Assembly: GCF_058153355.1 (NCBI RefSeq)
Contig: NZ_CM177019.1
Length of the DNA: 64,000 nt
Direction: 5' to 3' (one strand)
Made by a program: the position numbers and the translations under genes. Every line of letters begins with the position of its first letter. Positions within the stretch are counted from its first letter, which is position 1. Shown piece by piece: positions 1 through 46,243 of the stretch. The notes under the pieces were generated by a model, which was not told the DNA's origin, did no database searches, and worked only from the letters and a program-made list of their open reading frames with translations.

Positions 1-422
<422 letters not shown>

Positions 423-506
423 CATGCCTGCAATCTGGGAAACCGGGGTAGAAAAAAACTTGCAGGCCATAACAGTATCTACGTGATTCCTGCAATTTAT
501 TGAATT

Positions 507-542
507 TGTAGGCCGGATTAGGCGTTTACGCCGCATCCGGCA
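507..542. repeat. REP (repetitive extragenic palindromic) element
   Basis: tgtaggccggattaggcgtttacgccgcatccggca matches the classical E. coli REP consensus (GCCGGATGCGGCGTAAACGCCTTATCCGGCCTAC family). Confidence 0.7.
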
Positions 543-600
543 TGATCAAAGCTCACTTTGTCTGTAATCTGAATCCGGACCACCATGCCCAGTTTATTCT

Positions 601-3297
601 TTACTGCCAGCCGTAACGACGGCTATAGAACCCTTTCACCAGCTGGGTTAACGTCATATACCCTGCCAGAATCGCAACCAGCCACGGGAAATAGCTTAAC
701 GGCAGCGCCTGCAGTTGCAGATAACTGGCCAACGGCGAAAACGGCAATGCGATCCCGACTATCATCACAATCACGGTCATGATCATTAACGGCCACGATG
801 CACAGCTCTGAATAAACGGTACACGACGGGTACGGATCATATGCACAATCAGCGTTTGCGACAGTAAGCCCACCACAAACCAGCCCGACTGGAACAGCGT
901 TTGCGTTTCCGGCGTGTTGGCATGGAATACCCACCACATCAGGCAAAACGTCAGAATATCGAAGATCGAACTGATCGGTCCGAAGAAGATCATAAAGCGC
1001 CCCAAATCCGCCGGATTCCAACGCTGCGGCTTTTGAATTTGCTCGTCGTCGACGTTATCAAACGGGATCGCCACCTGTGACACATCGTACAGCAGGTTCT
1101 GGATCAGTAAGTGTAAAGGCAGCATCGGCAGGAAGGGCAAGAAAGCACTCGCCACCAGCACGCTGAACACATTACCGAAGTTAGAACTCGCCGTCATTTT
1201 TATGTATTTCAGCATGTTGGCGAAAGTCCGGCGTCCTTCAATAACCCCCTCCTCCAGCACCATCAGGCTTTTTTCCAGCAGGATGATATCAGCCGCTTCA
1301 CGGGCAATATCTACCGCACCGTCCACAGAAATGCCGATATCCGCAGCGCGTAAGGCGGGCGCATCATTAATACCATCGCCCATAAAGCCAACCACATGCC
1401 CTTCGCGCTTTAGCAAGGTCACGATGCGTTCTTTATGCATCGGCGTCAGGCGAGCAAACAGCGTGGTGCGCTGTGCAAGATTTGCCAGTTCGTCGTCAGA
1501 TAGCGTTTCAATATCACTACCAATGACCACCTCTCCCGCGTCCAGTCCCACTTCATGGCACACTTTCGCCGCCACTAACTCGCTGTCGCCAGTAAGGATT
1601 TTCACGGTAATGCCACTCGCTTTTAATGCCTTCAGTGCCGGAGCTGTTGTCTCTTTCGGCGGATCAAGGAAAGCAATATATCCTTCGAGGATCAGGTCGG
1701 ATTCATCCGCCCGCTGGTAATCCCCTTCACGTGCTGGCAGGTATTTCGTCGCCACCGCAACCACGCGCAGCCCCTGACGATTCAGCGTATCAGTAACGCG
1801 CTTAATCTTACGCAGTATGATGTCATCAAGCGGCACAATCTCACCATTGTGACGCACCTGCGAACACACATTGAGGATTTCCTGCAATGCGCCTTTGCAA
1901 ACCAGTTGATGATGTTCGGTATTCTCTGCCACTACCACCGACATCCGGCGACGCTCGAAATCAAACGGAATCTCATCAATTTTTTGCCAACGACTGGCCA
2001 GCGAGCGCGCTGACTCTTCATCCGTACCTTCGAGCACCGCTGTATCAAGCAGGTTTTTAAGTCCGGTCTGATAATGACTGTTCAACCACGCGCTATGCAG
2101 CACGCGTTCGCTGGTTTTACCGGAGATATCGGTATGATTCTCCAGCACAATTTTATCCTGCGTCAGGGTGCCGGTTTTATCAGTGCACAGAATATCCATA
2201 GCGCCAAAGTTCTGAATGGCATCCAGATGTTTGACGATCACTTTCTGTTTCGACAGCTTTACGGCACCACGCGCCAGCGTCGAAGTGACAATCATCGGCA
2301 ACATTTCTGGCGTTAAGCCTACCGCGACCGAAAGTGCGAACAGTGCCGCTTCCCACCAGTCACCTTTGGTGTAACCGTTGATCAGCAACACCACCGGAGC
2401 CATCACCAGCATAAAGCGAATCAGCAGCATACTGACGCGGCTAATCCCTTGCTGAAAGGCATTCGGCTCGCTTTCCTGCTCACTAACACGCCCCGCCAGT
2501 TGACCAAACCAGGTGTTGGCTCCTGTAGCAATCACCATTGCTTGTGCCGTGCCGCTCACCACGGTGGTGCCCATAAAACACAGGGTGTCGCACTCCAGCG
2601 GATTGCTGTGCTCCGGCTGGCGAGTGGTAGCAGCTTTTTCCACGGGCAGAGACTCACCGGTTAACGACGCCTGAGCAACAAACAGATCCCGCGCCTGCAA
2701 GATACGTAAATCTGCCGGGATCATATCCCCCGCCGCCAGTTTTATAATATCGCCGGGCACTAGTTGGTCTATCGGAATTTCCAGCCAGCCATTTTCACCT
2801 TTATCGTTAATTACGCGCAGTACCGTCGCGGTATTACTGACCATCGCTTTCAGGGCATCTGCCGCTTTGGTGGAACGAGCTTCCTGAATAAAGTTCAGCA
2901 ACGTAGAAATAGCGACCATTAGCGCGATAACACCTGCGGCAAATAAATCTTCCGTGGCGTAAGAAATAGCACCGAGAATGGTGAGCAAAATATTAAAGGG
3001 GTTGCGATAGCAGACCCATAAATGCACCCACCACGGCGACGGTTGTTGCGCGGGTAATTTATTTTCACCATGTTGTTCGCGGGCAGATTCCACTTCCGCC
3101 TGATTTAACCCTTCCGGATGGGTATTGAACGTTTTCCATAATTCCTGTTCTGGCATCACCGCCATTTTCAGGCAATGCGCACTTAAGGACGGCGGGACCG
3201 CCGTATTCACTGTCTGCTGCGCGCCAGGCAATGGATCGCGATGAACCAGACGGGAAGGTAAATGGCGAATGAGCCGGGTAAAAATTTCTTTAAACAT
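601..3297 (-). CDS. mgtA: Mg2+-importing P-type ATPase MgtA
   Basis: 898-aa ORF with the P-type ATPase phosphorylation motif DKTGTLT, the TGES motif and a GDGxNDxP hinge; length and sequence match MgtA. Confidence 0.97.
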   Translation of the reverse strand: MFKEIFTRLIRHLPSRLVHRDPLPGAQQTVNTAVPPSLSAHCLKMAVMPEQELWKTFNTHPEGLNQAEVESAREQHGENKLPAQQPSPWWVHLWVCYRNPFNILLTILGAISYATEDLFAAGVIALMVAISTLLNFIQEARSTKAADALKAMVSNTATVLRVINDKGENGWLEIPIDQLVPGDIIKLAAGDMIPADLRILQARDLFVAQASLTGESLPVEKAATTRQPEHSNPLECDTLCFMGTTVVSGTAQAMVIATGANTWFGQLAGRVSEQESEPNAFQQGISRVSMLLIRFMLVMAPVVLLINGYTKGDWWEAALFALSVAVGLTPEMLPMIVTSTLARGAVKLSKQKVIVKHLDAIQNFGAMDILCTDKTGTLTQDKIVLENHTDISGKTSERVLHSAWLNSHYQTGLKNLLDTAVLEGTDEESARSLASRWQKIDEIPFDFERRRMSVVVAENTEHHQLVCKGALQEILNVCSQVRHNGEIVPLDDIILRKIKRVTDTLNRQGLRVVAVATKYLPAREGDYQRADESDLILEGYIAFLDPPKETTAPALKALKASGITVKILTGDSELVAAKVCHEVGLDAGEVVIGSDIETLSDDELANLAQRTTLFARLTPMHKERIVTLLKREGHVVGFMGDGINDAPALRAADIGISVDGAVDIAREAADIILLEKSLMVLEEGVIEGRRTFANMLKYIKMTASSNFGNVFSVLVASAFLPFLPMLPLHLLIQNLLYDVSQVAIPFDNVDDEQIQKPQRWNPADLGRFMIFFGPISSIFDILTFCLMWWVFHANTPETQTLFQSGWFVVGLLSQTLIVHMIRTRRVPFIQSCASWPLMIMTVIVMIVGIALPFSPLASYLQLQALPLSYFPWLVAILAGYMTLTQLVKGFYSRRYGWQ

Positions 3298-3560
3298 AAG
3301 GAGTCCCTCCGCACTGTCTGAAACAGTGCAGAAATGTCTTCAGGCGTGGCGAAGCCTTACCTGAAGGTAATAAAGCTGAGCTGGGACGTTAAAACGTCAC
3401 GGCCTTACGCATCCGGTAACGCCGTGAAAAGACGGACTTACCGGAAAAGTTTTAATCTCCGTCGAGGGAGAGGCGTGGGATCAGGTTCCATATAACCTCC
3501 GGTAAGTGAAAAAAGCGCCGCAAATAATAAGGAGAATCCAATAATATTCGTGGCATTTAT
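3298..3560 (-). promoter_or_regulatory. mgtA 5' leader (Mg2+/proline-responsive attenuator region containing mgtL)
   Basis: Long untranslated region between the PhoP-box promoter and the mgtA start codon that contains the proline-rich leader ORF mgtL; the upstream boundary is approximate. Confidence 0.65.
3438..3491 (-). CDS. mgtL: mgtA leader peptide MgtL (17 aa, [17 protein letters not shown])
   Basis: Reverse complement of 3438..3491 is atggaacctgatcccacgcctctccctcgacggagattaaaacttttccggtaa. The ORF track merges it into a spurious 68-aa ORF (3438..3644). Confidence 0.85.
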
Positions 3561-4739: not shown

Positions 4740-6161
4740 ATGATGAGCAAAATAAACCAAACGGATCTCGATCGGTTGATTGAACTGGTCGGCGGGCGCG
4801 GCAACATTGCGACGGTGAGCCACTGTATTACTCGCCTGCGCTTTGTCCTCAACCAACCGGCCAATGCCAGACCGAAAGAGATTGAGCAACTCCCCATGGT
4901 GAAAGGCTGTTTCACCAATGCCGGGCAATTTCAGGTGGTAATTGGCACCAACGTGGGTGATTACTATCAAGCGCTGATAGCGACGACCGGACAGGCGCAG
5001 GTTGATAAAGAGCAGGTGAAAAAAGCTGCCCGGCAGAATATGAAATGGCATGAGCAGTTGATCTCTCATTTCGCGGAGATCTTCTTCCCGCTGCTGCCCG
5101 CGTTGATTAGTGGTGGTTTGATCCTCGGTTTTCGCAATGTGATCGGTGATTTGCCCATGAGCAACGGTCAAACGCTGGCGCAAATGTACCCTTCCCTGCA
5201 AACGATCTACGATTTTCTATGGTTGATCGGTGAAGCGATCTTCTTCTACCTGCCGGTCGGAATTTGCTGGTCAGCGGTGAAAAAAATGGGCGGCACGCCG
5301 ATCCTCGGTATCGTGCTTGGCGTGACGCTGGTTTCCCCACAGTTGATGAACGCTTATCTGCTCGGGCAGCAGCTACCGGAAGTATGGAACTTTGGCATGT
5401 TCAGCATCGCCAAAGTGGGCTATCAGGCACAGGTTATTCCGGCACTGTTAGCCGGGCTGGCGCTGGGCGTGATAGAAACTCGCCTTAAGCGTATCGTGCC
5501 GGATTACCTCTATCTGGTGGTGGTGCCGGTCTGTTCGCTGATCCTCGCGGTGTTCCTCGCCCATGCGCTGATTGGTCCGTTTGGTCGCATGATTGGCGAT
5601 GGCGTTGCCTTTGCGGTGCGTCACCTGATGACCGGCAGCTTTGCCCCCATTGGTGCGGCATTGTTTGGCTTCCTTTATGCACCGCTGGTGATCACCGGCG
5701 TACACCAGACCACGCTTGCTATAGATTTGCAGATGATTCAAAGCATGGGTGGCACGCCAGTATGGCCGCTTATTGCGCTGTCGAATATCGCTCAGGGCTC
5801 CGCCGTGATAGGCATTATCATTTCCAGCCGCAAGAGCAATGAACGCGAGATCTCCGTACCTGCCGCTATCTCCGCCTGGCTTGGGGTCACTGAGCCTGCA
5901 ATGTACGGCATCAACCTGAAATATCGCTTCCCGATGCTGTGCGCGATGATTGGTTCTGGTCTGGCAGGATTGCTATGTGGTCTGAACGGCGTTATGGCGA
6001 ATGGCATCGGCGTAGGCGGCCTGCCGGGAATTCTCTCTATTCAACCGAGCTATTGGCAAGTGTTTGCGCTGGCAATGGCTATCGCCATCATCATCCCGAT
6101 TGTACTCACCTCATTTATCTACCAGCGGAAATACCGCCTGGGTACGCTGGACATTGTTTAA
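4740..6161 (+). CDS. treB: PTS trehalose-specific EIIBC component TreB
   Basis: 473-aa product from ATG 4740 (MMSKINQTDLDRLIELVGG...); N-terminal EIIB domain with the CITRLRF cysteine motif followed by a multi-pass EIIC domain. Confidence 0.95.
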   Translation: MMSKINQTDLDRLIELVGGRGNIATVSHCITRLRFVLNQPANARPKEIEQLPMVKGCFTNAGQFQVVIGTNVGDYYQALIATTGQAQVDKEQVKKAARQNMKWHEQLISHFAEIFFPLLPALISGGLILGFRNVIGDLPMSNGQTLAQMYPSLQTIYDFLWLIGEAIFFYLPVGICWSAVKKMGGTPILGIVLGVTLVSPQLMNAYLLGQQLPEVWNFGMFSIAKVGYQAQVIPALLAGLALGVIETRLKRIVPDYLYLVVVPVCSLILAVFLAHALIGPFGRMIGDGVAFAVRHLMTGSFAPIGAALFGFLYAPLVITGVHQTTLAIDLQMIQSMGGTPVWPLIALSNIAQGSAVIGIIISSRKSNEREISVPAAISAWLGVTEPAMYGINLKYRFPMLCAMIGSGLAGLLCGLNGVMANGIGVGGLPGILSIQPSYWQVFALAMAIAIIIPIVLTSFIYQRKYRLGTLDIV

Positions 6162-32224: not shown

Positions 32225-32779
32225 ATGACCCTACGTAAGATTCTGGCACTCACCTGCCTGCTGTTGCCGATGATGGCTTCCGCACATCAGTTTGAAACCG
32301 GTCAACGAGTGCCACCGATAGGCATTACCGATCGGGGCGAGTTGGTGCTTGATAAAGATCAGTTTAGCTACAAAACCTGGAACAGCGCGCAGTTAGTGGG
32401 AAAAGTGCGAGTACTGCAACATATTGCTGGTCGCACCTCTGCAAAAGAGAAAAACGCGACGCTGATTGAAGCGATTAAATCAGCAAAGTTACCGCATGAT
32501 CGTTACCAGACCACCACCATTGTGAACACCGACGACGCGATTCCGGGTTCTGGCATGTTTGTGCGCAGCAGTCTGGAGAGTAATAAAAAGCTTTATCCCT
32601 GGTCGCAGTTTATTGTCGATAGCAATGGCGTCGCCCGCGGTGCCTGGCAGCTAGATGAAGAAAGTTCCGCTGTAGCGGTGCTGGACAAAGACGGTCGAGT
32701 GCAATGGGCCAAAGACGGTGCGCTCACTCAGGAAGAGGTGCAGCAAGTGATGAACCTGCTGCAAAAGTTGCTCAAATAA
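32225..32779 (+). CDS. ytfJ: Periplasmic protein YtfJ
   Basis: 184-aa product with signal peptide MTLRKILALTCLLLPMMASA. Confidence 0.9.
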   Translation: MTLRKILALTCLLLPMMASAHQFETGQRVPPIGITDRGELVLDKDQFSYKTWNSAQLVGKVRVLQHIAGRTSAKEKNATLIEAIKSAKLPHDRYQTTTIVNTDDAIPGSGMFVRSSLESNKKLYPWSQFIVDSNGVARGAWQLDEESSAVAVLDKDGRVQWAKDGALTQEEVQQVMNLLQKLLK

Positions 32780-32811
32780 TGTTAATAACATAAATTCTGG
32801 AAAAATAAATT

Positions 32812-32840
32812 TCCCCTATCGATATATATGGGATAGGGGA
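32812..32840. terminator. Hairpin between convergent ytfJ and ytfI (weak terminator candidate)
   Basis: tcccctatc-N11-gatagggga stem. Confidence 0.4.
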
Positions 32841-32879
32841 ATTAAGTCTCTGAGTTTTTACGCCGAACTCATACTAGTA

Positions 32880-33803
32880 TCAATAACCATTATTCGCGTT
32901 TAACGGTTTTACCTCTTTTTTAAACGCTTCAATGGTAGATTTATATTTCTCGGAAATCTTTTCTTCGGTATAATTACCATTTGCGGCCAGATTTGCACTT
33001 ATAATCGCTTCCACTTGCTCGGTTATTTCCACTTGTTGGCAACCTGCATTAACCAGAAAATTATAAATAAGAGAGTAATCTTCACCCTGCAAAAAAATAT
33101 AAGAGCCAGTTCGAAATTCCTCATCCCCTCCATAGATTTTAAGAGCAAAGCCCAAAGATTCTATGACCATGGCATAATTTCTATTATTTATTTCCTCGCA
33201 AAAATACCATCCTTCACATTCTTTAATGCTACCTTCTGGCCCTTCAAGTTCAAATTTACCCCGTTTTAATTTGCTTACTACATTCTCCAAATAAGCAGAA
33301 TCGTAAGATAAGTTACCCGCCGCCTTCCGAAAATAACCGTTAATCCTTTCAGGTATGTCAGACTGTTTTTTCTGCAAAATATCATAGGCATACAATCTTC
33401 TATTTTGTGCTAGTGGAAATTCACGGTTTTTAAAGTCTATAAATGAGTTATACTCATTTATTGTTATAGGGATTTCTTCGTATTCAAATCCAGTGCCTCG
33501 CAATGTCATTGTATATTCGGCACCGTTATCTTTAAGGCGGAAGCTGATAAGAAAATTATCCATGGAGTGAACGGTTTCATCTTTTGATGAAAGCACCTGA
33601 TAACTATTTTTATCAATCTGTGTTGCTCTAAGAAAGAACTCCCTTAAAATTAACAGACTATCATAATTCGAAATCCAATCCCTTTTCTTAAATGCATGCT
33701 GAATATTATTAAAGAAATTATTTGAATGTATTTTTGTATGCGATGACTTTACAAATAACTCCACTGCACCAAAAAAATTATTGTGTCTGATCTTGGGTAA
33801 CAT
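32880..33803 (-). CDS. ytfI: Hypothetical protein, YtfI-like (function unknown)
   Basis: 307-aa AT-rich ORF with ATG start and no recognisable domain; position between ytfJ and cysQ corresponds to K-12 ytfI (from memory). Confidence 0.6.
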   Translation of the reverse strand: MLPKIRHNNFFGAVELFVKSSHTKIHSNNFFNNIQHAFKKRDWISNYDSLLILREFFLRATQIDKNSYQVLSSKDETVHSMDNFLISFRLKDNGAEYTMTLRGTGFEYEEIPITINEYNSFIDFKNREFPLAQNRRLYAYDILQKKQSDIPERINGYFRKAAGNLSYDSAYLENVVSKLKRGKFELEGPEGSIKECEGWYFCEEINNRNYAMVIESLGFALKIYGGDEEFRTGSYIFLQGEDYSLIYNFLVNAGCQQVEITEQVEAIISANLAANGNYTEEKISEKYKSTIEAFKKEVKPLNANNGY

Positions 33804-34015
33804 ATGACAACCTTATTATATTTGGTTATTCTATGTCGCCATTAAATATCTTATTAAAGAAGTAAACTATCAAAAAAAGCTCATTATTAAAACATAACTT
33901 ATTAACGTTAGAATATTTACACTTTAAATACAATCCCTTTATATCTATAACTTTTTAGGTTGGAAACAAATCAGGATGGCAGAATCAGGAAATACACTGT
34001 TTCTGCCATATATAT

Positions 34016-38440: not shown

Positions 38441-39415
38441 ATGCCAGTAATGATTAGCGGCGTGCTGTACGCCCTGTTAGCAGGGTTGATGTGGGGGCTT
38501 ATATTTGTCGGGCCGTTGATCGTGCCGGAATACCCGGCGATGTTGCAGTCGATGGGCCGTTATCTGGCGTTAGGGTTAATTGCGCTCCCCATTGCCTGGC
38601 TGGGGCGCGTGCGTCTGCGTCAGTTGGCGCGTCGCGACTGGCTTACCGCCTTGATGCTCACCATGATGGGCAACCTCATCTATTACTTCTGCCTTGCCAG
38701 TGCCATTCAACGTACTGGCGCGCCTGTTTCCACGATGATTATCGGCACCCTGCCGGTGGTGATTCCTGTCTTCGCCAATCTGCTTTATAGCCAGCGTGAC
38801 GGTAAACTCGCGTGGGGGAAACTCGCCCCGGCGCTGGTTTGTATTGGCATCGGCCTGGCATGTGTAAATATTGCTGAGTTAGACCACGGACTCCCCGATT
38901 TTGACTGGGCACGTTATACCTCTGGCATCGTGTTGGCGTTAGTTTCCGTGGTCTGCTGGGCGTGGTATGCCTTGCGCAACGCCCGTTGGCTGCGGGAAAA
39001 CCCAGACAAACATCCGATGATGTGGGCAACGGCGCAGGCGCTGGTCACGCTGCCGGTTTCTCTCATCGGCTATCTCGTCGCCTGTTACTGGCTGAATACG
39101 CAAACGCCGGGCTTCTCCCTACCTTTTGGCCCCCGTCCGCTGGTGTTTATTAGTCTGATGATTGCGATAGCCGTGCTTTGCTCATGGGTTGGCGCACTCT
39201 GCTGGAACGTCGCCAGCCAGCGATTACCGACGGTGATTCTCGGGCCGCTGATTGTCTTCGAAACGCTGGCAGGTTTGCTGTACACCTTTTTGTTACGCCA
39301 GCAAATGCCGCCGCTGATGACGCTGAGCGGTATCGCGCTGTTAGTGGTTGGCGTGGTCATTGCGGTCAGAGCAAAACCGGAAAAACCCTTAATTGAACCT
39401 GTCTCAGAAAGTTGA
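38441..39415 (+). CDS. ytfF: Inner-membrane transporter YtfF (DMT/EamA-like)
   Basis: About 10 predicted TM helices; start codon ambiguous (38441 or 38450). Confidence 0.88.
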   Translation: MPVMISGVLYALLAGLMWGLIFVGPLIVPEYPAMLQSMGRYLALGLIALPIAWLGRVRLRQLARRDWLTALMLTMMGNLIYYFCLASAIQRTGAPVSTMIIGTLPVVIPVFANLLYSQRDGKLAWGKLAPALVCIGIGLACVNIAELDHGLPDFDWARYTSGIVLALVSVVCWAWYALRNARWLRENPDKHPMMWATAQALVTLPVSLIGYLVACYWLNTQTPGFSLPFGPRPLVFISLMIAIAVLCSWVGALCWNVASQRLPTVILGPLIVFETLAGLLYTFLLRQQMPPLMTLSGIALLVVGVVIAVRAKPEKPLIEPVSES

Positions 39416-39473
39416 CACGCTGGCAGTGAGTTAAATAAGCCTCTGCTACGTAAGGGTTATAGCATTTGCCTTA

Positions 39474-39496
39474 AAGATGCATTTAAAATACATCTT
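39474..39496 (+). promoter_or_regulatory. NsrR operator in the ytfE promoter
   Basis: aagatgcatttaaaatacatctt is a near-perfect match to the NsrR palindrome consensus, 27 nt upstream of the ytfE ATG. Confidence 0.8.
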
Positions 39497-39522
39497 ATAT
39501 TATTAAGAATGAGGTATCAGCT

Positions 39523-40185
39523 ATGGCTTATCGCGACCAACCTTTAGGTGAACTGGCGCTCTCTATTCCTCGCGCTTCGGCTCTGTTTCGTCAATATGAT
39601 ATGGATTACTGCTGCGGCGGTAAGCAAACGCTGGCGCGTGCGGCGGCACGTAAAGAACTGGATGTTGACGTCATTGAAGCCGAACTGGCAAAGCTTGCTG
39701 AACAACCGATTGAGAAAGACTGGCGTAGCGCCCCACTGGCGGAAATCATCGACCATATCATCGTGCGCTACCACGATCGTCACCGTGAACAACTGCCGGA
39801 ACTGATTCTGCAAGCGACTAAAGTCGAACGCGTTCACGCCGACAAACCGAGCGTGCCAAAAGGGCTGACAAAATACCTGACCATGCTGCATGAAGAGCTT
39901 TCCAGCCACATGATGAAAGAAGAGCAGATCCTCTTCCCGATGATCAAACAAGGCATGGGTAGCCAGGCGATGGGGCCAATTAGCGTAATGGAAAGCGAGC
40001 ACGATGAAGCGGGTGAACTGCTGGAAGTAATCAAACACACTACCAATAACGTCACACCGCCGCCGGAAGCCTGCACCACCTGGAAAGCGATGTATAACGG
40101 TATTAATGAACTGATTGATGACCTGATGGAGCACATCAGTCTGGAAAACAATGTGCTGTTCCCGCGCGCGCTGGCGGGTGAGTGA
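39523..40185 (+). CDS. ytfE: Iron-sulfur cluster repair di-iron protein YtfE (RIC)
   Basis: 220-aa product [38 protein letters not shown]... Confidence 0.95.
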
Positions 40186-40193
40186 TTCGTTCG

Positions 40194-40226
40194 ATCAACG
40201 ATCCTGACATGTACAGGATCGTTGAT
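40194..40226. other. 13-bp perfect inverted repeat (hairpin) at the boundary between ytfE and the accessory operon
   Basis: atcaacgatcctg-acatgta-caggatcgttgat; no flanking T-tract. Confidence 0.4.
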
Positions 40227-40237
40227 TGTTAAGAGGT

Positions 40238-41731
40238 TCAGTCTTTCAATGGACGTAATTCATTGTTGTAACTGGTGTAACTGCCTTCAACGGTAAGTAG
40301 ATTGCCGTTTTCATCAAGATGCGCCGCATTGAGTTGTCGAGTTTCATTACGCCGCTTCGCATCACGTACCAGCCCATCGCCTACGTAATAAATATAGTGG
40401 TCATCATGAGCAAAGGTATCTGATAATTGACCATTGGCGTATTTAAACCACGTCCATTGGCCTTTCAGTTCAAATTGCTCAACCGTGTTTTCATCAATAA
40501 AATACGTAAAGCGATCGTCATGTGCTAAATAATTTAATGGTGTGCCATCGTGGCTTTTATACCACTGCCATTGCCCATTAATATCAAAAATAGTCACATC
40601 ATCGCTCGCAATGAAATAAAATTTATTCCCTATAATATTAACGCCTTCATGTAATTCTTGTTGTGGGTCGGGTAAATGAATAACCGACAGTGTTTTTTCG
40701 ACCCCAGAAACATACTTCACCAGATAGAGCGAATCTTTATATTGCGCCACATTCTTCGTCAGCGGGCGAAAATATTCCGGATCAACATCAGGAATGGTCG
40801 CAACCCGGCAGTCATTGGCACGCCAGGAAACGTCACGCGTCATCCATGTTACTTTATCCCGCTGTAGGTCAAACGTATTTCGGCACTCTTTACCGAACGC
40901 ATAACGTTTCTCCCCGTCCTTATCGCGATAAATCAGCAGGGAACCGGCTATCCAGCGCACAATATGAAAGGTGTCCGGATCGGCGTTGATGGAATCTCCG
41001 TTCACAAAGACCTGCGATTTTGTCCGCCAGATTGTATCCCAGGGTGCGGGATGCCCCCAATTTTCACAAGTGTTTGGCAAATAAAGAATATTCCGTTGGG
41101 CCCAGGGTTTAATGTCAAGAATAGAATATCCTTGCGTACTACCCAACCAGCGTCCCTGAAAGTAAAGATTGCGACGATCTTTCAGTACATCCGCGGAATC
41201 AATTAAATTCATCCTCCCCCCCACCTGTTGCAGCGAATCCATATCGACCTGCTTTTCGCCGTGATTATCATCCGTGCGTTCGCCATCAAAATAGAGGCTG
41301 TCTTTATCAGCGGCAAAACGCCCCCATGCGCGGAATGTTGCGGCATCGACTTTCGGTGTTCCCGGCGGGTTCTGAACTATTTTCCCTGCCCATAAAATAT
41401 GGCGACCATCGGTCAACCAGTCGAAACGCCAACTACCGTTAGTTCTGATATTAGTGCCAGCATCTACCTGAACATAATCATTATTGATATCATCAGGAGA
41501 ATCATATTTATCATCAGTGCCGTTGGGTACGCGGCGAAGTTGCTTAAACTTCACCTGCGATAAATGAATATCCGGAAAATAGAGTCCGTAACCATCACTA
41601 TCTTCAACGATATATTTTGTTCCTTGCCCCCACGGCTGGTAGTAAAACGCAGCAGCAGGCACACCGGAGCAGGCTAGTGAGGAGGTTGAAAATAAAGCCA
41701 GTGCGAGACAAACGGGTTTAATTGGCAACAT
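40238..41731 (-). CDS. Secreted repeat protein, paralogue 1 (DKNYY-like repeats; function unknown)
   Basis: 497-aa product with signal peptide MLPIKPVCLALALFSTSSLA; repeated D-K-x-x-[LIV]-Y-[FY] and A-D-x-x-T/S-F motifs (e.g. VDAATFRAWGRFAADKDSLYFDG); AGGA RBS. Confidence 0.75.
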   Translation of the reverse strand: MLPIKPVCLALALFSTSSLACSGVPAAAFYYQPWGQGTKYIVEDSDGYGLYFPDIHLSQVKFKQLRRVPNGTDDKYDSPDDINNDYVQVDAGTNIRTNGSWRFDWLTDGRHILWAGKIVQNPPGTPKVDAATFRAWGRFAADKDSLYFDGERTDDNHGEKQVDMDSLQQVGGRMNLIDSADVLKDRRNLYFQGRWLGSTQGYSILDIKPWAQRNILYLPNTCENWGHPAPWDTIWRTKSQVFVNGDSINADPDTFHIVRWIAGSLLIYRDKDGEKRYAFGKECRNTFDLQRDKVTWMTRDVSWRANDCRVATIPDVDPEYFRPLTKNVAQYKDSLYLVKYVSGVEKTLSVIHLPDPQQELHEGVNIIGNKFYFIASDDVTIFDINGQWQWYKSHDGTPLNYLAHDDRFTYFIDENTVEQFELKGQWTWFKYANGQLSDTFAHDDHYIYYVGDGLVRDAKRRNETRQLNAAHLDENGNLLTVEGSYTSYNNELRPLKD

Positions 41732-41763
41732 AGCATCATCCTGAAGCTGTTAGCGTGAAGAGG

Positions 41764-42921
41764 TTATTTAAATAAGGGTTTAAGACCGCTCGGGGGTTGC
41801 TTCACCGATGACCAACCTCCCTTACCTAAGTTATAACGCAGCCATTCACCTTGTTGGGCGTGCTCTTTCCCAATTCCAGTCGCTTGTTGAGTGTAAAGCT
41901 GCCCGTCTGTTGATATAAACGTGTTAGTTAATCCCCAACTACCACCTGCTTCAAGTGAGTCGGTGAGATCCTCTGGCTTGAGATTAATCAACTCCCCTTC
42001 GCCCAGGGCGTTGGTTGTTACTTTATAAATTTGGTTCTTATATAAACCGGTATTCCGAACAAACAGATAAAAATATTCCGGATCAACTCCCGCCAGCGTT
42101 TCATAAACACAATCACTACCCGCTGGCGTTGCTTCTTGTTTGAGCCAGGACACAGTCTTCAAACCAATATTAAATGACGCACAACTGTGACTAATATCCT
42201 CCAACTTATAGTCATGCTCACCGCTTTTATCGCGATAAACCAACCGTTCGCCAGGCATCCAACGTTTAATCTGAAAAGTTTTGCGATCGGCGGGCAGTGG
42301 CTTGCCATTAACGATCACCTGCGAATTTGTCAGCACAACAAATTGCAGGGCGGAATCATGCCGCACGATTTGAAATCCATCGGCATGACCCAACCAGCGC
42401 CCTTTATGCCAGAGGCCATTTTTATCACGCAGTAAATTCCAGATGTCCGTCTCTTCCAGCGTTGACATATCCACCTGCTTATCACCGCTATTATCATCGG
42501 TACGCTGGCCGTCAAAATAGATACTGCGTTTATCGGCAGCGAAAGCGCCGAATGCCTGAAAACTGGCAGCGTCGACTTTAGGTTTACCGGGGGGATTTTT
42601 CAGGACTTTGCCTGCCCAAATAACAAAGCGTCCATCGGTGAGCCAGGAATGCTGGCAATCCCCCTTATCATCGCAATCGAACTTATCGGGATTAAAATCG
42701 GACAGTAACCGGCAATCTTGCTTATTAGCTAAATTGGCAATGCGCCAGAGGCGGGAAAAATTAACGTCTGGTAATTCGGAGAGGATCTCATCTTCTTTTC
42801 CCTTCTGTTCGGCAACGTAAACCGTGCCTTTATCATGCTGGCGGTAATAAAAATCCGCGCCCCAGGAAGGTAAAATGGAGAGAGGTAATGCGGCGATTAA
42901 TAACCAACTGCGCTTAACCAT
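41764..42921 (-). CDS. Secreted repeat protein, paralogue 2 (DKNYY-like repeats; function unknown)
   Basis: 385-aa product from ATG 42921 with signal peptide MVKRSWLLIAALPLSILPSWGA; shares long identical or similar blocks with paralogue 1 (WLTDGRxxxWAGKxxxNPPGxPKVDAAxFxAxGxFAADKxSxYFDGxRTDDNxGxKQVDM). The ORF-track N-terminal extension (to 43080) overlapping cycA is rejected. Confidence 0.7.
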   Translation of the reverse strand: MVKRSWLLIAALPLSILPSWGADFYYRQHDKGTVYVAEQKGKEDEILSELPDVNFSRLWRIANLANKQDCRLLSDFNPDKFDCDDKGDCQHSWLTDGRFVIWAGKVLKNPPGKPKVDAASFQAFGAFAADKRSIYFDGQRTDDNSGDKQVDMSTLEETDIWNLLRDKNGLWHKGRWLGHADGFQIVRHDSALQFVVLTNSQVIVNGKPLPADRKTFQIKRWMPGERLVYRDKSGEHDYKLEDISHSCASFNIGLKTVSWLKQEATPAGSDCVYETLAGVDPEYFYLFVRNTGLYKNQIYKVTTNALGEGELINLKPEDLTDSLEAGGSWGLTNTFISTDGQLYTQQATGIGKEHAQQGEWLRYNLGKGGWSSVKQPPSGLKPLFK

Positions 42922-43013
42922 AGTGAACTCTGCAACGAGTGGCAAAGATCCACGGTAAGCTCGCGCCTGAGGGCTGTCTATGATGGTAGATTTTTTTAGG
43001 AATATATAAAGAC

Positions 43014-43035
43014 AAAGGCACCCGCAGGTGCCTTT
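43014..43035 (-). terminator. Rho-independent terminator downstream of cycA
   Basis: aaaggcacc-cgca-ggtgccttt stem with flanking T/A tracts, 20 nt after the cycA stop. Confidence 0.55.
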
Positions 43036-43054
43036 CAGAGTTATAAACGCGGCA

Positions 43055-44458
43055 TTACTTCGCCATGCGTTTTTTACCAATAAACAACCAGCCCAACCCC
43101 AGCGCGATAAACCACAGCGGGGTAACTATCAGCGCCTGGCGAGTGTCATCTTCCAGTGTCAGCAGCACGACCACGAACACAAAGAACGCCATACATACCC
43201 AGCACATCAGCTTGCCGAGCGGCATCTTGTAGATAGACTTCTCATGCAGGTGCGGACGCTGTTTGCGATACACCAGGTATGAGCAAAGGATAATCGTCCA
43301 GACGAACATAAACAGAATCGCGGAAACAGTCGTGATCATCGTGAACGCGCCAATTACACTTGGATTCACATACAACATCACCACGCCGCCAAGCAGACAG
43401 ATACAAGAGAAGGTCAGCCCTTTCGCGGGTACGGCGCGCTTAGAAAGTTTAGCGAACGCTTTCGGCGCAACACCTTCCTGGGCCAGACCAAACAGCATAC
43501 GGCTGGTAGAGAAGACGCCGCTGTTAGCGGAAGACGCCGCAGAGGTCAGCACCACAAAGTTGATTACGCTGGCAGCCGCAGGCAAACCCACCAACACAAA
43601 CAATTCAACAAACGGGCTTTTCTCCGGGACTACTGAACTCCACGGCGTCACGGACATAATCACAATCAGCGCGAAGACGTAGAACATAATGATACGGATC
43701 GGAATGGAGTTAATCGCACGTGGCAGTGATTTCTCCGGATCTTTCGTTTCCGCAGCGGTTGTACCGACCAGCTCAATCCCCACGAAAGCGAAAACCGCTA
43801 TCTGGAATCCGGCAAAGAAGCCACTTAAACCTTTCGGGAACCAGCCGCCGTCATTCCACAAATGCGCGAATGACGCTTCCACACCGGTCGGTGACTGAAA
43901 GTGCATCGCCACCATGACCAGGCCGACGACAATCAGTGACACGATGGCGACAATTTTGATCATCGCAAACCAGAACTCCATCTCACCGAACATTTTCACG
44001 GTGGCGAGGTTAAGCGTCAGCAGCAGCACTATCACCGCCAGCGAGGCGACCCAGTCGGAGAGATCGGGGAACCAGAACTGAGCATAGGCAGTGATGGCCA
44101 CCACGTCCGCCATACCGGTAACCACCCAGCAGAACCAGTAGGTCCAGCCAGTGAAATATCCCGCCCATGGCCCCAGTAAATCGGAAGCGAAGTCACTAAA
44201 AGATTTGTATTCCAGATTCGAAAGCAGCAATTCCCCCATTGCCCGCATCACGAAAAAGAGCATAAAACCGATGATCATATAAACGAAGATGATCGACGGT
44301 CCGGCAAGGCTGATTGTTTTACCGGACCCCATAAACAACCCCGTACCAATGGCCCCACCAATGGCAATAAGCTGAATATGTCGGTTTGTGAGATTGCGCC
44401 GTAGCGACTGTTCAGCCGGAGCCTGATCATCGGCAACGACTTTTACCTGATCTACCAT
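43055..44458 (-). CDS. cycA: D-serine/D-alanine/glycine:H+ symporter CycA (APC family)
   Basis: 467-aa product MVDQVKVVADDQAPAEQSLRRNLTNRHIQLIAIGGAIGTGLFMGSG... Confidence 0.95.
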   Translation of the reverse strand: MVDQVKVVADDQAPAEQSLRRNLTNRHIQLIAIGGAIGTGLFMGSGKTISLAGPSIIFVYMIIGFMLFFVMRAMGELLLSNLEYKSFSDFASDLLGPWAGYFTGWTYWFCWVVTGMADVVAITAYAQFWFPDLSDWVASLAVIVLLLTLNLATVKMFGEMEFWFAMIKIVAIVSLIVVGLVMVAMHFQSPTGVEASFAHLWNDGGWFPKGLSGFFAGFQIAVFAFVGIELVGTTAAETKDPEKSLPRAINSIPIRIIMFYVFALIVIMSVTPWSSVVPEKSPFVELFVLVGLPAAASVINFVVLTSAASSANSGVFSTSRMLFGLAQEGVAPKAFAKLSKRAVPAKGLTFSCICLLGGVVMLYVNPSVIGAFTMITTVSAILFMFVWTIILCSYLVYRKQRPHLHEKSIYKMPLGKLMCWVCMAFFVFVVVLLTLEDDTRQALIVTPLWFIALGLGWLFIGKKRMAK

Positions 44459-44766
44459 GTTTTTTTCTTCCTGTACCTGTCTGTGTTGTTCAGGCTCTGC
44501 GGCCTTTAGTCAGTCTATGATACGACGAATCTGTATCGGGACTCATCGATATTAGGTAACAATACGCGGGATGAATACTAAGATTTAGATCTAATGTTAA
44601 TTTTATGTTTAAAGTGAGTGTCATATCACGGTGATAACGCGAAACAGCTCACAAAAATACACGCTTACGTGGTCTTTGCAACACAAAATAGCGCCATTTG
44701 GCAAACTGAAGGGTTTATTGCTGAATGCCTGCTCCCCTCTGGCTCGAGGGGAACAGAATGCGCTGC

Positions 44767-45387
44767 TTAGAGGATTTCCAGCAGTTCGACTTCAAACACC
44801 AGGGTGCTGAACGGAGGGATGGACGCGCCTGCGCCACGCTCGCCATATGCCAGTTCCTGCGGGATAGTCAGTTCCCATTTAGAACCTACCGGCATCAGAG
44901 TCAGTGCTTCAATCCAGCCAGGGATCACGCCGTTAACCGGGAATTCAGCTGGCTCGCCACGGGCAACAGAGCTGTCAAACACAGTGCCGTCGATCAGTTT
45001 ACCGGTGTAATGAACACGAACGCGGTCAGTGCGTGCCGGAATTGCGCCTTCCCCCTGATTGATCACGCGGAATTGCAGGCCAGATTCGGTGCTATTCACA
45101 CCTTCTTTTTTGGCGTTTTCTTCCAGGTATTTCACACCTTCAGCAGCCATCGCCTGGAAACGCTGACGACGAACGGCATCGGCGCGTTCGTGGATTTCAC
45201 GCAGCGCGCGGTGCACCACATCAACCGGAACAGCCGGATGTTTGCCTTCCAGCGCATCGGCAATGCCTGCAACCAGTGCTTCTGGCAGCAGCCCTTCCAG
45301 GCCAGATTCACTCAGTTGTTGCCCTACCTGCAAACCAATGCCGTAGCTTGCTTGCGCTTCGATGGTGTCAAAAGTTGGGGTGGTCAT
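44767..45387 (-). CDS. fklB: FKBP-type peptidyl-prolyl cis-trans isomerase FklB
   Basis: 206-aa product from ATG 45387 ([25 protein letters not shown]...); FKBP domain at the C-terminus. Confidence 0.95.
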
Positions 45388-45604
45388 CGTATTTCCTTTC
45401 TTAGGGTATAAAGTAGCGGGCAGCATATCAGCCACACTTCTTTGGGTAAAACTTTGTCGCGGGAATGATGACAAATCCCGGGGAAAAAGAAACAATAGCA
45501 ATATCCCGTATGAATATAATAAAGGCGGGTTTACCACGGACATCATAGCGTTAGCTTATTCATAGGCTATGATTGAGGAACAAGACGCGGAGCAGGAGGA
45601 AACC

Positions 45605-46243
45605 ATGCCCGGGCGCTTTGAACTAAAACCAACCCTGGAGAAAGTCTGGCACGCGCCGGACAATTTTCGCTTCATGGACCCGCTACCGCCGATGCATCGT
45701 CGGGGGATCATTATTGCCGCTATTGTATTGGTGGTCGGATTTCTACTCCCGTCTGATGATACGCCAAACGCGCCGGTGGTGACGCGTGAAGCACAGTTAG
45801 ATATTCAGTCGCAATCACAACCGCCGACAGAAGAACAGCTGCGGGCGCAATTAGTCACACCACAAAATGATCCTGATCAGGTGGCTCCGGTCGCTCCAGA
45901 ACCGATACAGGAAGGCCAACCGGAAGAGCAGCCGCAAACCTCGCAAGTGCAACCTTTCCAGCCAGATAGCGGAATTGACAATCAATGGCGCTCTTATCGT
46001 GTCGAACCCGGTAAAACAATGGCGCAGCTGTTCCGCGACCACGGACTGCCCGCTACCGATGTCTATGCAATGGCGCAGGTAGAAGGCGCGGATAAGCCAC
46101 TGAGTAATTTGCAAAATGGGCAGATGGTGAAAATCCGCCAGAACGCCAGCGGCGTGGTGACGGGCTTAACCATTGATACGGGAAATAATCAACAGGTCCT
46201 GTTTACCCGCCAGCCGGATGGCAGTTTTATTCGCGCGCGGTAG
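45605..46243 (+). CDS. ytfB: Cell-division protein YtfB (OapA/LysM-like)
   Basis: 212-aa product from ATG 45605 ([42 protein letters not shown]...). Confidence 0.9.

Follow-up and report, generated by a model that had tools for sequence, protein, structure and literature searches.

An allelic C-terminal tail of CycA linked to a small accessory islet between cycA and ytfE

Strain-variable islets are found at fixed "hotspots" between E. coli core genes, where they are exchanged by homologous recombination in the flanking genes. Integrative elements insert in the 3' ends of genes, in many cases tRNA genes and in some cases protein genes, and restore the gene with a copy of their own. The block of DNA described here lies between ytfE and cycA, the gene of the transporter that is the route of D-cycloserine and D-serine uptake, and can be compared with both. 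Like the hotspot islets, it occupies a fixed position between two core genes, has several alternative contents, lacks mobility genes, has flanks that look mosaic and has alleles common to different species. Unlike the hotspot islets, it reaches a few codons into a core gene and gives rise to two C-terminal forms of the protein, and the polymorphism is also present in a second genus, Salmonella. As with the 3'-end integrative elements, the insert is accompanied by an alternative end of the target gene; however, there is no recombinase and no att-like repeat, and the insert begins past the cycA terminator. What is seen here is an ordinary allelic dimorphism, not known to have been described before, in a protein tail under weak constraint, and it is coupled by linkage to a small accessory islet.

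The 3' end of cycA in the window and in K-12

The window, i.e. the whole stretch of 64,000 nucleotides that was analysed, carries an intact cycA gene at 43055..44458 on the minus strand. Translation gives a D-serine/D-alanine/glycine transporter of 467 aa with the C-terminus ...GLGWLFIGKKRMAK (stop), that is ...FIGKKRMAK, as the initial annotation had read it. The last codons are GGT AAA AAA CGC ATG GCG AAG TAA. The exact protein is on record as D-serine/D-alanine/glycine transporter [Escherichia coli], and the families PF00324 and PF13520 have been precomputed for it, which places an AA_permease domain in the protein. The gene is 95-96% identical in nucleotides to RefSeq-annotated E. coli cycA genes, and 95.4% identical to K-12 cycA over 1,380 nt without a gap. 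K-12 CycA (b4208), a member of the amino-acid transporter family of the amino acid-polyamine-organocation superfamily, has the same two Pfam families, its residues 1-464 align gap-free with the window protein, and the differences between the two proteins are essentially confined to the tail. The neighbours are also alike, with fklB upstream and ytfE convergent downstream. In the window ytfE lies on the plus strand at 39523..40185 in the list of open reading frames, and its product is 99-100% identical to E. coli YtfE by tblastn. The order fklB - cycA - ytfE is common to K-12, other E. coli, E. albertii, E. fergusonii, Salmonella and 28 other Enterobacteriaceae loci. Judged by its sequence, the window gene is an intact orthologue of K-12 cycA and not a damaged gene. 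The closest solved relative of CycA is LysP (E 8e-63). The alignment with the LysP structure stops at CycA residue 444 and leaves the tail uninformed. The C-terminus of CycA follows helix 12 and is taken to be cytoplasmic, from what is generally known of the transporter superfamily.

The initial annotation had also given K-12 CycA as 470 aa long with a different extreme C-terminus, and this is correct. The RefSeq CDS of 1413 nt corresponds to 470 codons, and its 3' end, GGT AAG AAG CGG GCT GCT GAA CTG CGG AAA TAA, encodes ...FIGKKRAAELRK (stop). When the two sequences are set side by side, AAELRK follows KKR in K-12 and MAK follows it in the window. An identical C-terminus in K-12 was looked for and does not hold. 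The haplotype-specific tail of the window comprises codons 462-467 (K K R M A K) and the stop at 43055..43075 on the minus strand, the K-12 counterpart being K K R A A E L R K and the stop. The codons of K462, K463 and R464 differ from those of K-12 by three synonymous changes, after which the tails are different.

The K-12 reference locus, from a K-12 MG1655 derivative, has the end of ytfE 44 nt from the cycA stop. By blastn, positions 1..1287 of this locus correspond to 38900..40186 of the window and positions 1353..3385 to 43068..45100. The block without an alignable counterpart therefore measures 2,881 bp in the window (40187..43067) and 65 bp in K-12. In the window it holds the cycA tail, a terminator, two islet genes and a hairpin on the ytfE side, so that a 2.9-kb islet lies downstream of cycA; the K-12 locus has another terminator hairpin and no islet. 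One edge of the block is 1 nt past the ytfE stop, where position 40186 is still aligned, and the other is inside codon 464 of cycA, alignment resuming at 43068. Alignment of the cycA 3' end with K-12 places the breakpoint at codons 462-464. The suggestion that the boundary lies within the last codons of cycA is thus correct as to position: the edge is there, it is linked to the islet, and it is found likewise in Salmonella.

A boundary inside a gene could mean that the islet was inserted within the last codons of a K-12-like cycA, cutting off AAELRK and leaving MAK and the stop to be read from islet DNA as a fusion artefact. The collapse of K-12 identity inside the coding sequence, at codons 462-464, is what such an insertion would produce. 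The KKR codons before the tail, however, are already synonymously changed, and a simple insertion break would not bring that about.

The core flanks of the window are 94-96% identical to the E. coli loci compared and about 91-92% identical to those of E. albertii, E. fergusonii and a divergent Escherichia representative, L009. By these identities the window comes from a divergent lineage of, or next to, E. coli. A contig of GCA_043012465.1 matches the window at 99.99% over 9.4 kb, and three window proteins are deposited as Escherichia coli.

Terminators and genes of the islet

A pattern scan detected an intrinsic-terminator-like hairpin 20 nt past the cycA stop, at 43014..43035 on the minus strand, with the form AAAGGCACC-UGCG-GGUGCCUUU followed by GUCUUU. 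The RNA folds with -16.9 kcal/mol (z -2.2). This hairpin is kept in all islet-type Escherichia loci, those of E. albertii and E. fergusonii included. The ATG of the first islet gene lies beyond it, 133 nt downstream of the cycA stop. That a terminator hairpin comes after the stop, in a place occupied by one in other genera too, speaks against a fused reading frame. A search of 39000..45500 against Rfam, with E values up to 1, gave no match.

The initial annotation had further noted that an open reading frame extended from the accessory genes overlaps the end of cycA. The overlap does exist. The frame upstream of the first islet gene is open at 42922..43080 on the minus strand, and the mechanical ORF 41764..43080, started at a TTG at 43080, shares exactly 26 nt with cycA (43055..43080). 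The extension is not coding, however, and it varies in length. Ahead of the ATG the frame stays open for 204 nt in the window and for 237, 147, 75 and 30 nt in other lineages, it passes through the cycA terminator and stop, and an insertion of about 137 bp breaks it in O111, O153, E. albertii and Escherichia sp. E4385. By its resemblance to the REP consensus this segment looks like a REP pair; ERIC primer sequences were not found in it (O111, E. albertii). Homologues of the first islet gene in RefSeq are 385-387 aa long and start at the same ATG. The variable frame length and the RefSeq gene start at the ATG show the overlap with cycA to be a listing artefact. The spurious 438-aa ORF should not be annotated.

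The islet has two genes, both on the minus strand. Gene A (41764..42921, with its ATG at 42921) was identified as an ORF whose translation of 385 aa has a signal-peptide-like N-terminus. Gene B (40238..41731) is translated into 497 aa and is a paralogue of gene A, with 36% identity over 354 aa (BLASTP, E 2e-62). A Cys follows the hydrophobic stretch at the N-terminus of its product, which may be a lipoprotein. Gene A covers 116 of the 141 profile positions of the Pfam family DKNYY (PF13644) with 23.3 bits, which falls short of the curated cut-off (25 bits); no Pfam family matches gene B, and neither gene reaches the PF13644 gathering threshold. One E. coli homologue of gene A is named 'DKNYY domain-containing protein' by RefSeq. 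We know of no function for this family. A literature search returned 'DKNYY' only as an unrelated mention, and nothing was found for cycA and ytfE together with Escherichia.

On the ytfE side, a repeat search detected a perfect 13-bp inverted repeat at 40194..40226, between the stop codons of gene B and ytfE. RNA folds of it gave -20.3 and -25.2 kcal/mol (z -3.9 and -4.5), and it is likely to be a bidirectional terminator. A homologue of this hairpin is recognisable in islet-bearing Salmonella. Gene B and K-12 cycA both end 44 nt from ytfE, and it was suspected that the K-12 AAELRK and stop derive from the 3' end of gene B. This origin was ruled out: gene B ends ...LRPLKD (stop), and the two 44-nt spacers are unrelated.

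It can also be considered whether a site-specific integrative element, of which the islet would be a remnant, targeted the 3' end of cycA and brought a replacement end. The alternative gene end does accompany the insert in two genera, and the GC content of the block (40-49%) is below that of the flanks (51-58%). The block of 2.9 kb, however, contains no integrase, recombinase, transposase or other mobility gene within 40187..43067, just the two paralogous genes of predicted exported proteins. No direct repeat of the cycA 3' end was found at the junction on the ytfE side, and no terminal direct or inverted repeats were found around the islet, the repeat search giving just the paralogy of genes A and B and the ytfE-side hairpin. 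Homologues of gene A were found only at this type of locus, in Escherichia and Salmonella. An origin from an integrative element is considered very improbable. The lack of insertion signatures likewise argues against the insertion and fusion described above.

Distribution of the tails and the islet

Positions 39400..44600 were compared by megablast with 5,426 complete E. coli genomes, and the locus was found in 5,416. Most of these loci cover about 45% of the query (ytfF, ytfE and cycA), and an intermediate class covers about 55%. As derived from the megablast coverage classes and not from a per-genome table, the counts are 627 of 5,426 genomes with the islet (426-bp probe covering the 5' portion of gene A), 626 in which a 61-bp probe specific for the short tail has a hit and 4,787 with the K-12 junction fully covered. 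The two states together account for 5,413-5,415 of the 5,416 genomes that carry the locus. This is a clean two-state polymorphism in which the linkage between tail type and islet is essentially complete. The complete linkage is what an insertion into cycA would also give, and the association in Salmonella is alike.

The content of the site is more varied than the tail. The whole query is covered in 267 genomes, in which both islet genes are intact. About 360 genomes have a degraded islet, where 143 codons of gene A are left and the next ORF, of 355 aa, is unrelated and has no similarity to gene B (E 0.52). At least five states occur at the site: empty, the two-gene islet, the degraded islet with the 355-aa ORF, REP pairs, and the spacer of strain HS-02. 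HS-02 is a singleton exception that is islet-free and has a spacer of 78 bp and a CycA of 468 aa ending in KKRMANA (stop). Past this end it has an out-of-frame K-12-like CTGCGGAAATAA and then a K-12-like hairpin. With strain 98232, which bears the islet, HS-02 has 100% identity in the flanks. Among the handful of E. coli sequences compared the cycA gene looks mosaic, with 88-99% identity per segment.

A scan of species representatives with CycA gave at least 80 loci, in each of which cycA was extended to its stop and the downstream sequence inspected. Among the 80 loci listed, CycA is 462-479 aa long, and what is conserved in the tail is just the basic cluster past the last hydrophobic segment. 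The cycA-ytfE spacer in these loci has different hairpins and REP-like elements in nearly every genus. The E. albertii type strain has a CycA of 467 aa with KKRMAK and a homologue of gene A; L009 has the K-12 form of both tail and junction. The remaining Enterobacteriaceae loci listed are islet-free, with ytfE 41-711 bp from cycA. Their tails include KKRLAK in proteins of 467 aa (Klebsiella oxytoca, Pluralibacter gergoviae), KKRMAG[MV]R in proteins of 469 aa (Citrobacter, Enterobacter and Lelliottia, and, outside the 80 loci, Salmonella), LRKNQQAK or LRKKAIAK in proteins of 468 aa (Kluyvera, Pseudocitrobacter), and KKRLAALRK, KKRLANLRK and similar sequences in proteins of 470 aa in several other genera. 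The diversity of islet-free tails across genera indicates that both Escherichia tails are ordinary members of a hypervariable tail and that a length of 467 aa needs no islet.

These outgroup tails bear directly on the idea that MAK was read from inserted DNA. Klebsiella and Pluralibacter have a 467-aa protein with KKRLAK and no islet, and the KKRMA of the islet-type tail is common to islet-free Citrobacter, Enterobacter and Salmonella. The tail has its own stop and terminator and is similar to islet-free tails, from which it follows that it is not a product of truncation or fusion. The suggestion that the C-terminus of CycA was altered by the insertion is not supported: the stop and the terminator hairpin precede gene A, and islet-free tails of 467 aa exist. 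An insertion within a K-12-like cycA is thus considered improbable.

E. fergusonii and Salmonella are outside the 80 loci listed and were reached through look-ups of exact proteins, which gave the order fklB - cycA (467 aa) - A - B - ytfE in E. fergusonii, Escherichia sp. E4385 and S. enterica. In these three and in E. albertii the islet lies at the same site and always occurs with a 467-aa CycA. The homologues of gene A that were found belong to Escherichia and Salmonella enterica only. They are 79-91% identical in Escherichia (E. coli, E. albertii, E. marmotae, E. fergusonii, Escherichia sp.) and 49-53% identical in S. enterica, and islet alleles of 79-91% amino acid identity are common to different species labels.

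In Salmonella, contexts obtained through the FklB protein comprise nine islet-free loci with a CycA of 469 aa and one further islet-bearing locus with 467 aa. The tails are …LIGKKRMAGMR (stop) in islet-free and …FLRKNKLAK (stop) in islet-bearing loci. Over the first 1,376 nt the cycA genes of the two types show 11 differences, followed by 15 in the final 28 nt. Of the 11 differences, six fall within the 170 nt adjoining the break, in a comparison of a handful of sequences. The break on the other side is the ytfE stop. On these comparisons, the pattern of a boundary in the last codons of cycA is real and recurs in a second genus.

Origin of the two tails

The two tails of Escherichia can be aligned with MAFFT, which places ATG GCG AAG TAA TGCCGCGTTTATAAC of the islet type against CTG CGG AAA TAA CCGCATTATCATG of K-12. 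The span covers the last three codons, the stop and about 30 nt beyond it, K-12 having CTG CGG AAA TAA CCGCATTATCATGCTGGATGGC and the islet type ATG GCG AAG TAA TGCCGCGTTTATAACTCTGAAAGGC, so that the weak positional similarity of the two types extends beyond the stop codon. By this alignment, an in-frame indel of 9 nt separates the tails immediately after KKR. HS-02 is intermediate between the two types, with KKRMA joined to K-12-like downstream sequence. Shuffling gave p values of about 0.05 for K-12 and the window, 0.45 for K-12 and strain 98232, and 0.015 for HS-02 and the islet type. The nucleotide similarity of the tail and terminator versions is short and statistically borderline, and the case for homology rests mainly on position and on the pattern at the protein level. 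The two Escherichia tails are likely to be homologous.

The preferred account, with a probability of roughly 0.7, is that the tail belongs to one of two old, recombining haplotypes of the cycA-ytfE spacer and is inherited as a block with the islet, and that it was not made by an insertion. The window haplotype carries the islet with its two paralogous genes for predicted exported proteins, together with a cycA terminator and a CycA tail of its own (...KKR-MAK); the K-12 haplotype has a 44-bp spacer with one hairpin and the tail ...KKR-AAELRK of the 470-aa protein. Once past the basic KKR anchor, which follows the last membrane helix, the tail would be barely constrained, and it may have diverged by the 9-nt in-frame indel and by substitutions until no homology was left for crossovers. 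Weak constraint on the tail would thereby account for its divergence and for a block edge inside cycA, at the point where alignable homology ends. On the other side YtfE would be constrained up to its stop codon. Homologous recombination in the genes on either side probably passes the islet among strains and species, and such exchange would resolve no closer than about codon 462 of cycA and the ytfE stop. With crossovers limited to these points, the tail would be inherited as one block with the islet. The apparently mosaic cycA, the islet alleles common across species labels and the absence of a mobility signature fit recombination in the flanks. The polymorphism appears to be old.

Which of the two states came first is a question of polarity that is compatible with the spacer haplotypes. 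It is possible, if doubtful, that the islet state is ancestral in Escherichia and that the 65-bp segment replaced islet and tail by deletion or import, giving AAELRK. In favour of this, islet and 467-aa tail occur in E. albertii, E. fergusonii, Escherichia sp. E4385, proteins labelled E. marmotae, and Salmonella. Among the loci listed the K-12 hairpin GCTGGATGGCGCAATGCCATCCAGC is found only in Escherichia, and HS-02 looks islet-type in its background, its flanks being those of strain 98232, with a K-12-like spacer. The K-12 tail, however, resembles tails of 470 aa elsewhere (KKRLAALRK, KKRLANLRK), the K-12-type junction is also found in the divergent L009, and the 65 bp have no match inside the islet.

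For the old spacer haplotypes, the difference between the tails is most likely functionally neutral, as far as the sequences suggest. It could alternatively be proposed that islet and tail form an ancient presence/absence polymorphism that is kept by selection in Escherichia and Salmonella, the tail or the 3' UTR being tied in function to the pair of exported DKNYY-like proteins, for instance by read-through transcription from cycA or by tail-dependent regulation of CycA. Such coupling is considered very improbable.

An island boundary drawn from alignments can fall inside a core gene that has not been disrupted, and this should be kept in mind when such boundaries are read. Here the boundary falls inside an intact gene, probably because the last codons are unconstrained and diverged along with the spacer. 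The 467-aa CycA is found in about 11.5% of complete E. coli genomes, apparently in all E. albertii and E. fergusonii examined, and in a minority of Salmonella, the usual forms being 470 aa in E. coli and 469 aa in Salmonella. The short CycA should be treated as a normal allele in pangenome clustering, in cycA variant calling (e.g. for D-cycloserine resistance) and in annotation pipelines.

One further point, which tells against the preferred account, concerns the first arrival of the islet. An alternative tail linked to the islet in two genera could mean that the cassette first arrived with a replacement 3' end.

Variation between cycA and ytfE in Escherichia

A third haplotype of the cycA-ytfE site is a singleton, found in 1 of 5,426 genomes, that of E. 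coli HS-02 (NZ_CP172818.1; 4413..4520 of the fetched locus L104). HS-02 is without the islet and has a cycA-ytfE spacer of 78 bp. Its CycA is 468 aa long and ends in KKRMANA*, past the cycA stop there are remnants of the K-12-like tail that are out of frame, and the hairpin is K-12-like with a 1-nt insertion. The flanks of the locus are 100% identical to their counterparts in strain 98232, which carries the islet. The HS-02 haplotype may be a genuine recombinant, or it may in part be an assembly error.

A degraded form of the islet occurs in ~360 E. coli genomes, including E04, O111:H8, CE-O153H30 and 2014C-3338 (loci L003, L005, L006 and L007). Gene A, cut short at 143 codons, bears a pseudogene annotation, and the remainder of gene A together with gene B is substituted by an unrelated 355-aa ORF that has no Pfam match. 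Another variation at this site is an insertion of ~137 bp, consisting of two REP-like palindromes, immediately 3' of the cycA terminator (about 8838..8978 in L005; also in loci L006, L008 and L091). It is carried by E. coli O111:H8, E. coli O153, E. albertii and Escherichia sp. E4385, and is not present in the window.

Mosaicism of cycA and divergence of the lineage

Within E. coli the body of cycA (window 43079..44458) shows strong mosaicism. In E04, CE-O153H30 and 2014C-3338 the first 460 nt of cycA have only 88-94% identity to K-12, whereas the same stretch is about 94-95% identical to that of L009, a divergent Escherichia representative. This pattern suggests inter-lineage imports across the cycA region. 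The window proteins are on record as E. coli, and the core genes around cycA have a nucleotide identity of only 94-96% to the compared E. coli loci. Judged by sequence identity, the window lineage is a divergent one, about at the species boundary.

Other accessory segments in the window

The ytfJ-cysQ interval of the window contains a segment of ~1.24 kb (32770..34012) with a 307-aa ORF on the minus strand (32880..33803). No counterpart of this segment exists in the O111 and O153 loci of E. coli, where ytfJ abuts cysQ. Beyond ytfB, at 46227..about 52100, there are a gene for a TetR-family regulator and a divergent operon whose products are a ketoacyl reductase, a sugar-phosphate isomerase-like protein, an enoyl-CoA hydratase, a CoA transferase and an FAD protein. 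These genes, too, form an accessory cluster; intact copies occur in E. coli CE-O153H30, E. coli 2014C-3338 and E. fergusonii, O111:H8 and HS-02 have only fragments of it, and K-12 apparently lacks it.

The same site in Salmonella enterica

The cycA-ytfE site of Salmonella enterica has an islet presence/absence polymorphism as in Escherichia and at the identical location. CycA is 467 aa long with the tail ...FLRKNKLAK in the islet-bearing loci (L088, L097), and 469 aa long with the tail ...LIGKKRMAGMR in the islet-free loci (L093-L096, L098-L102). The islet proteins of Salmonella enterica and Escherichia are only ~50% identical, yet despite this the ytfE-side hairpin is conserved between them.
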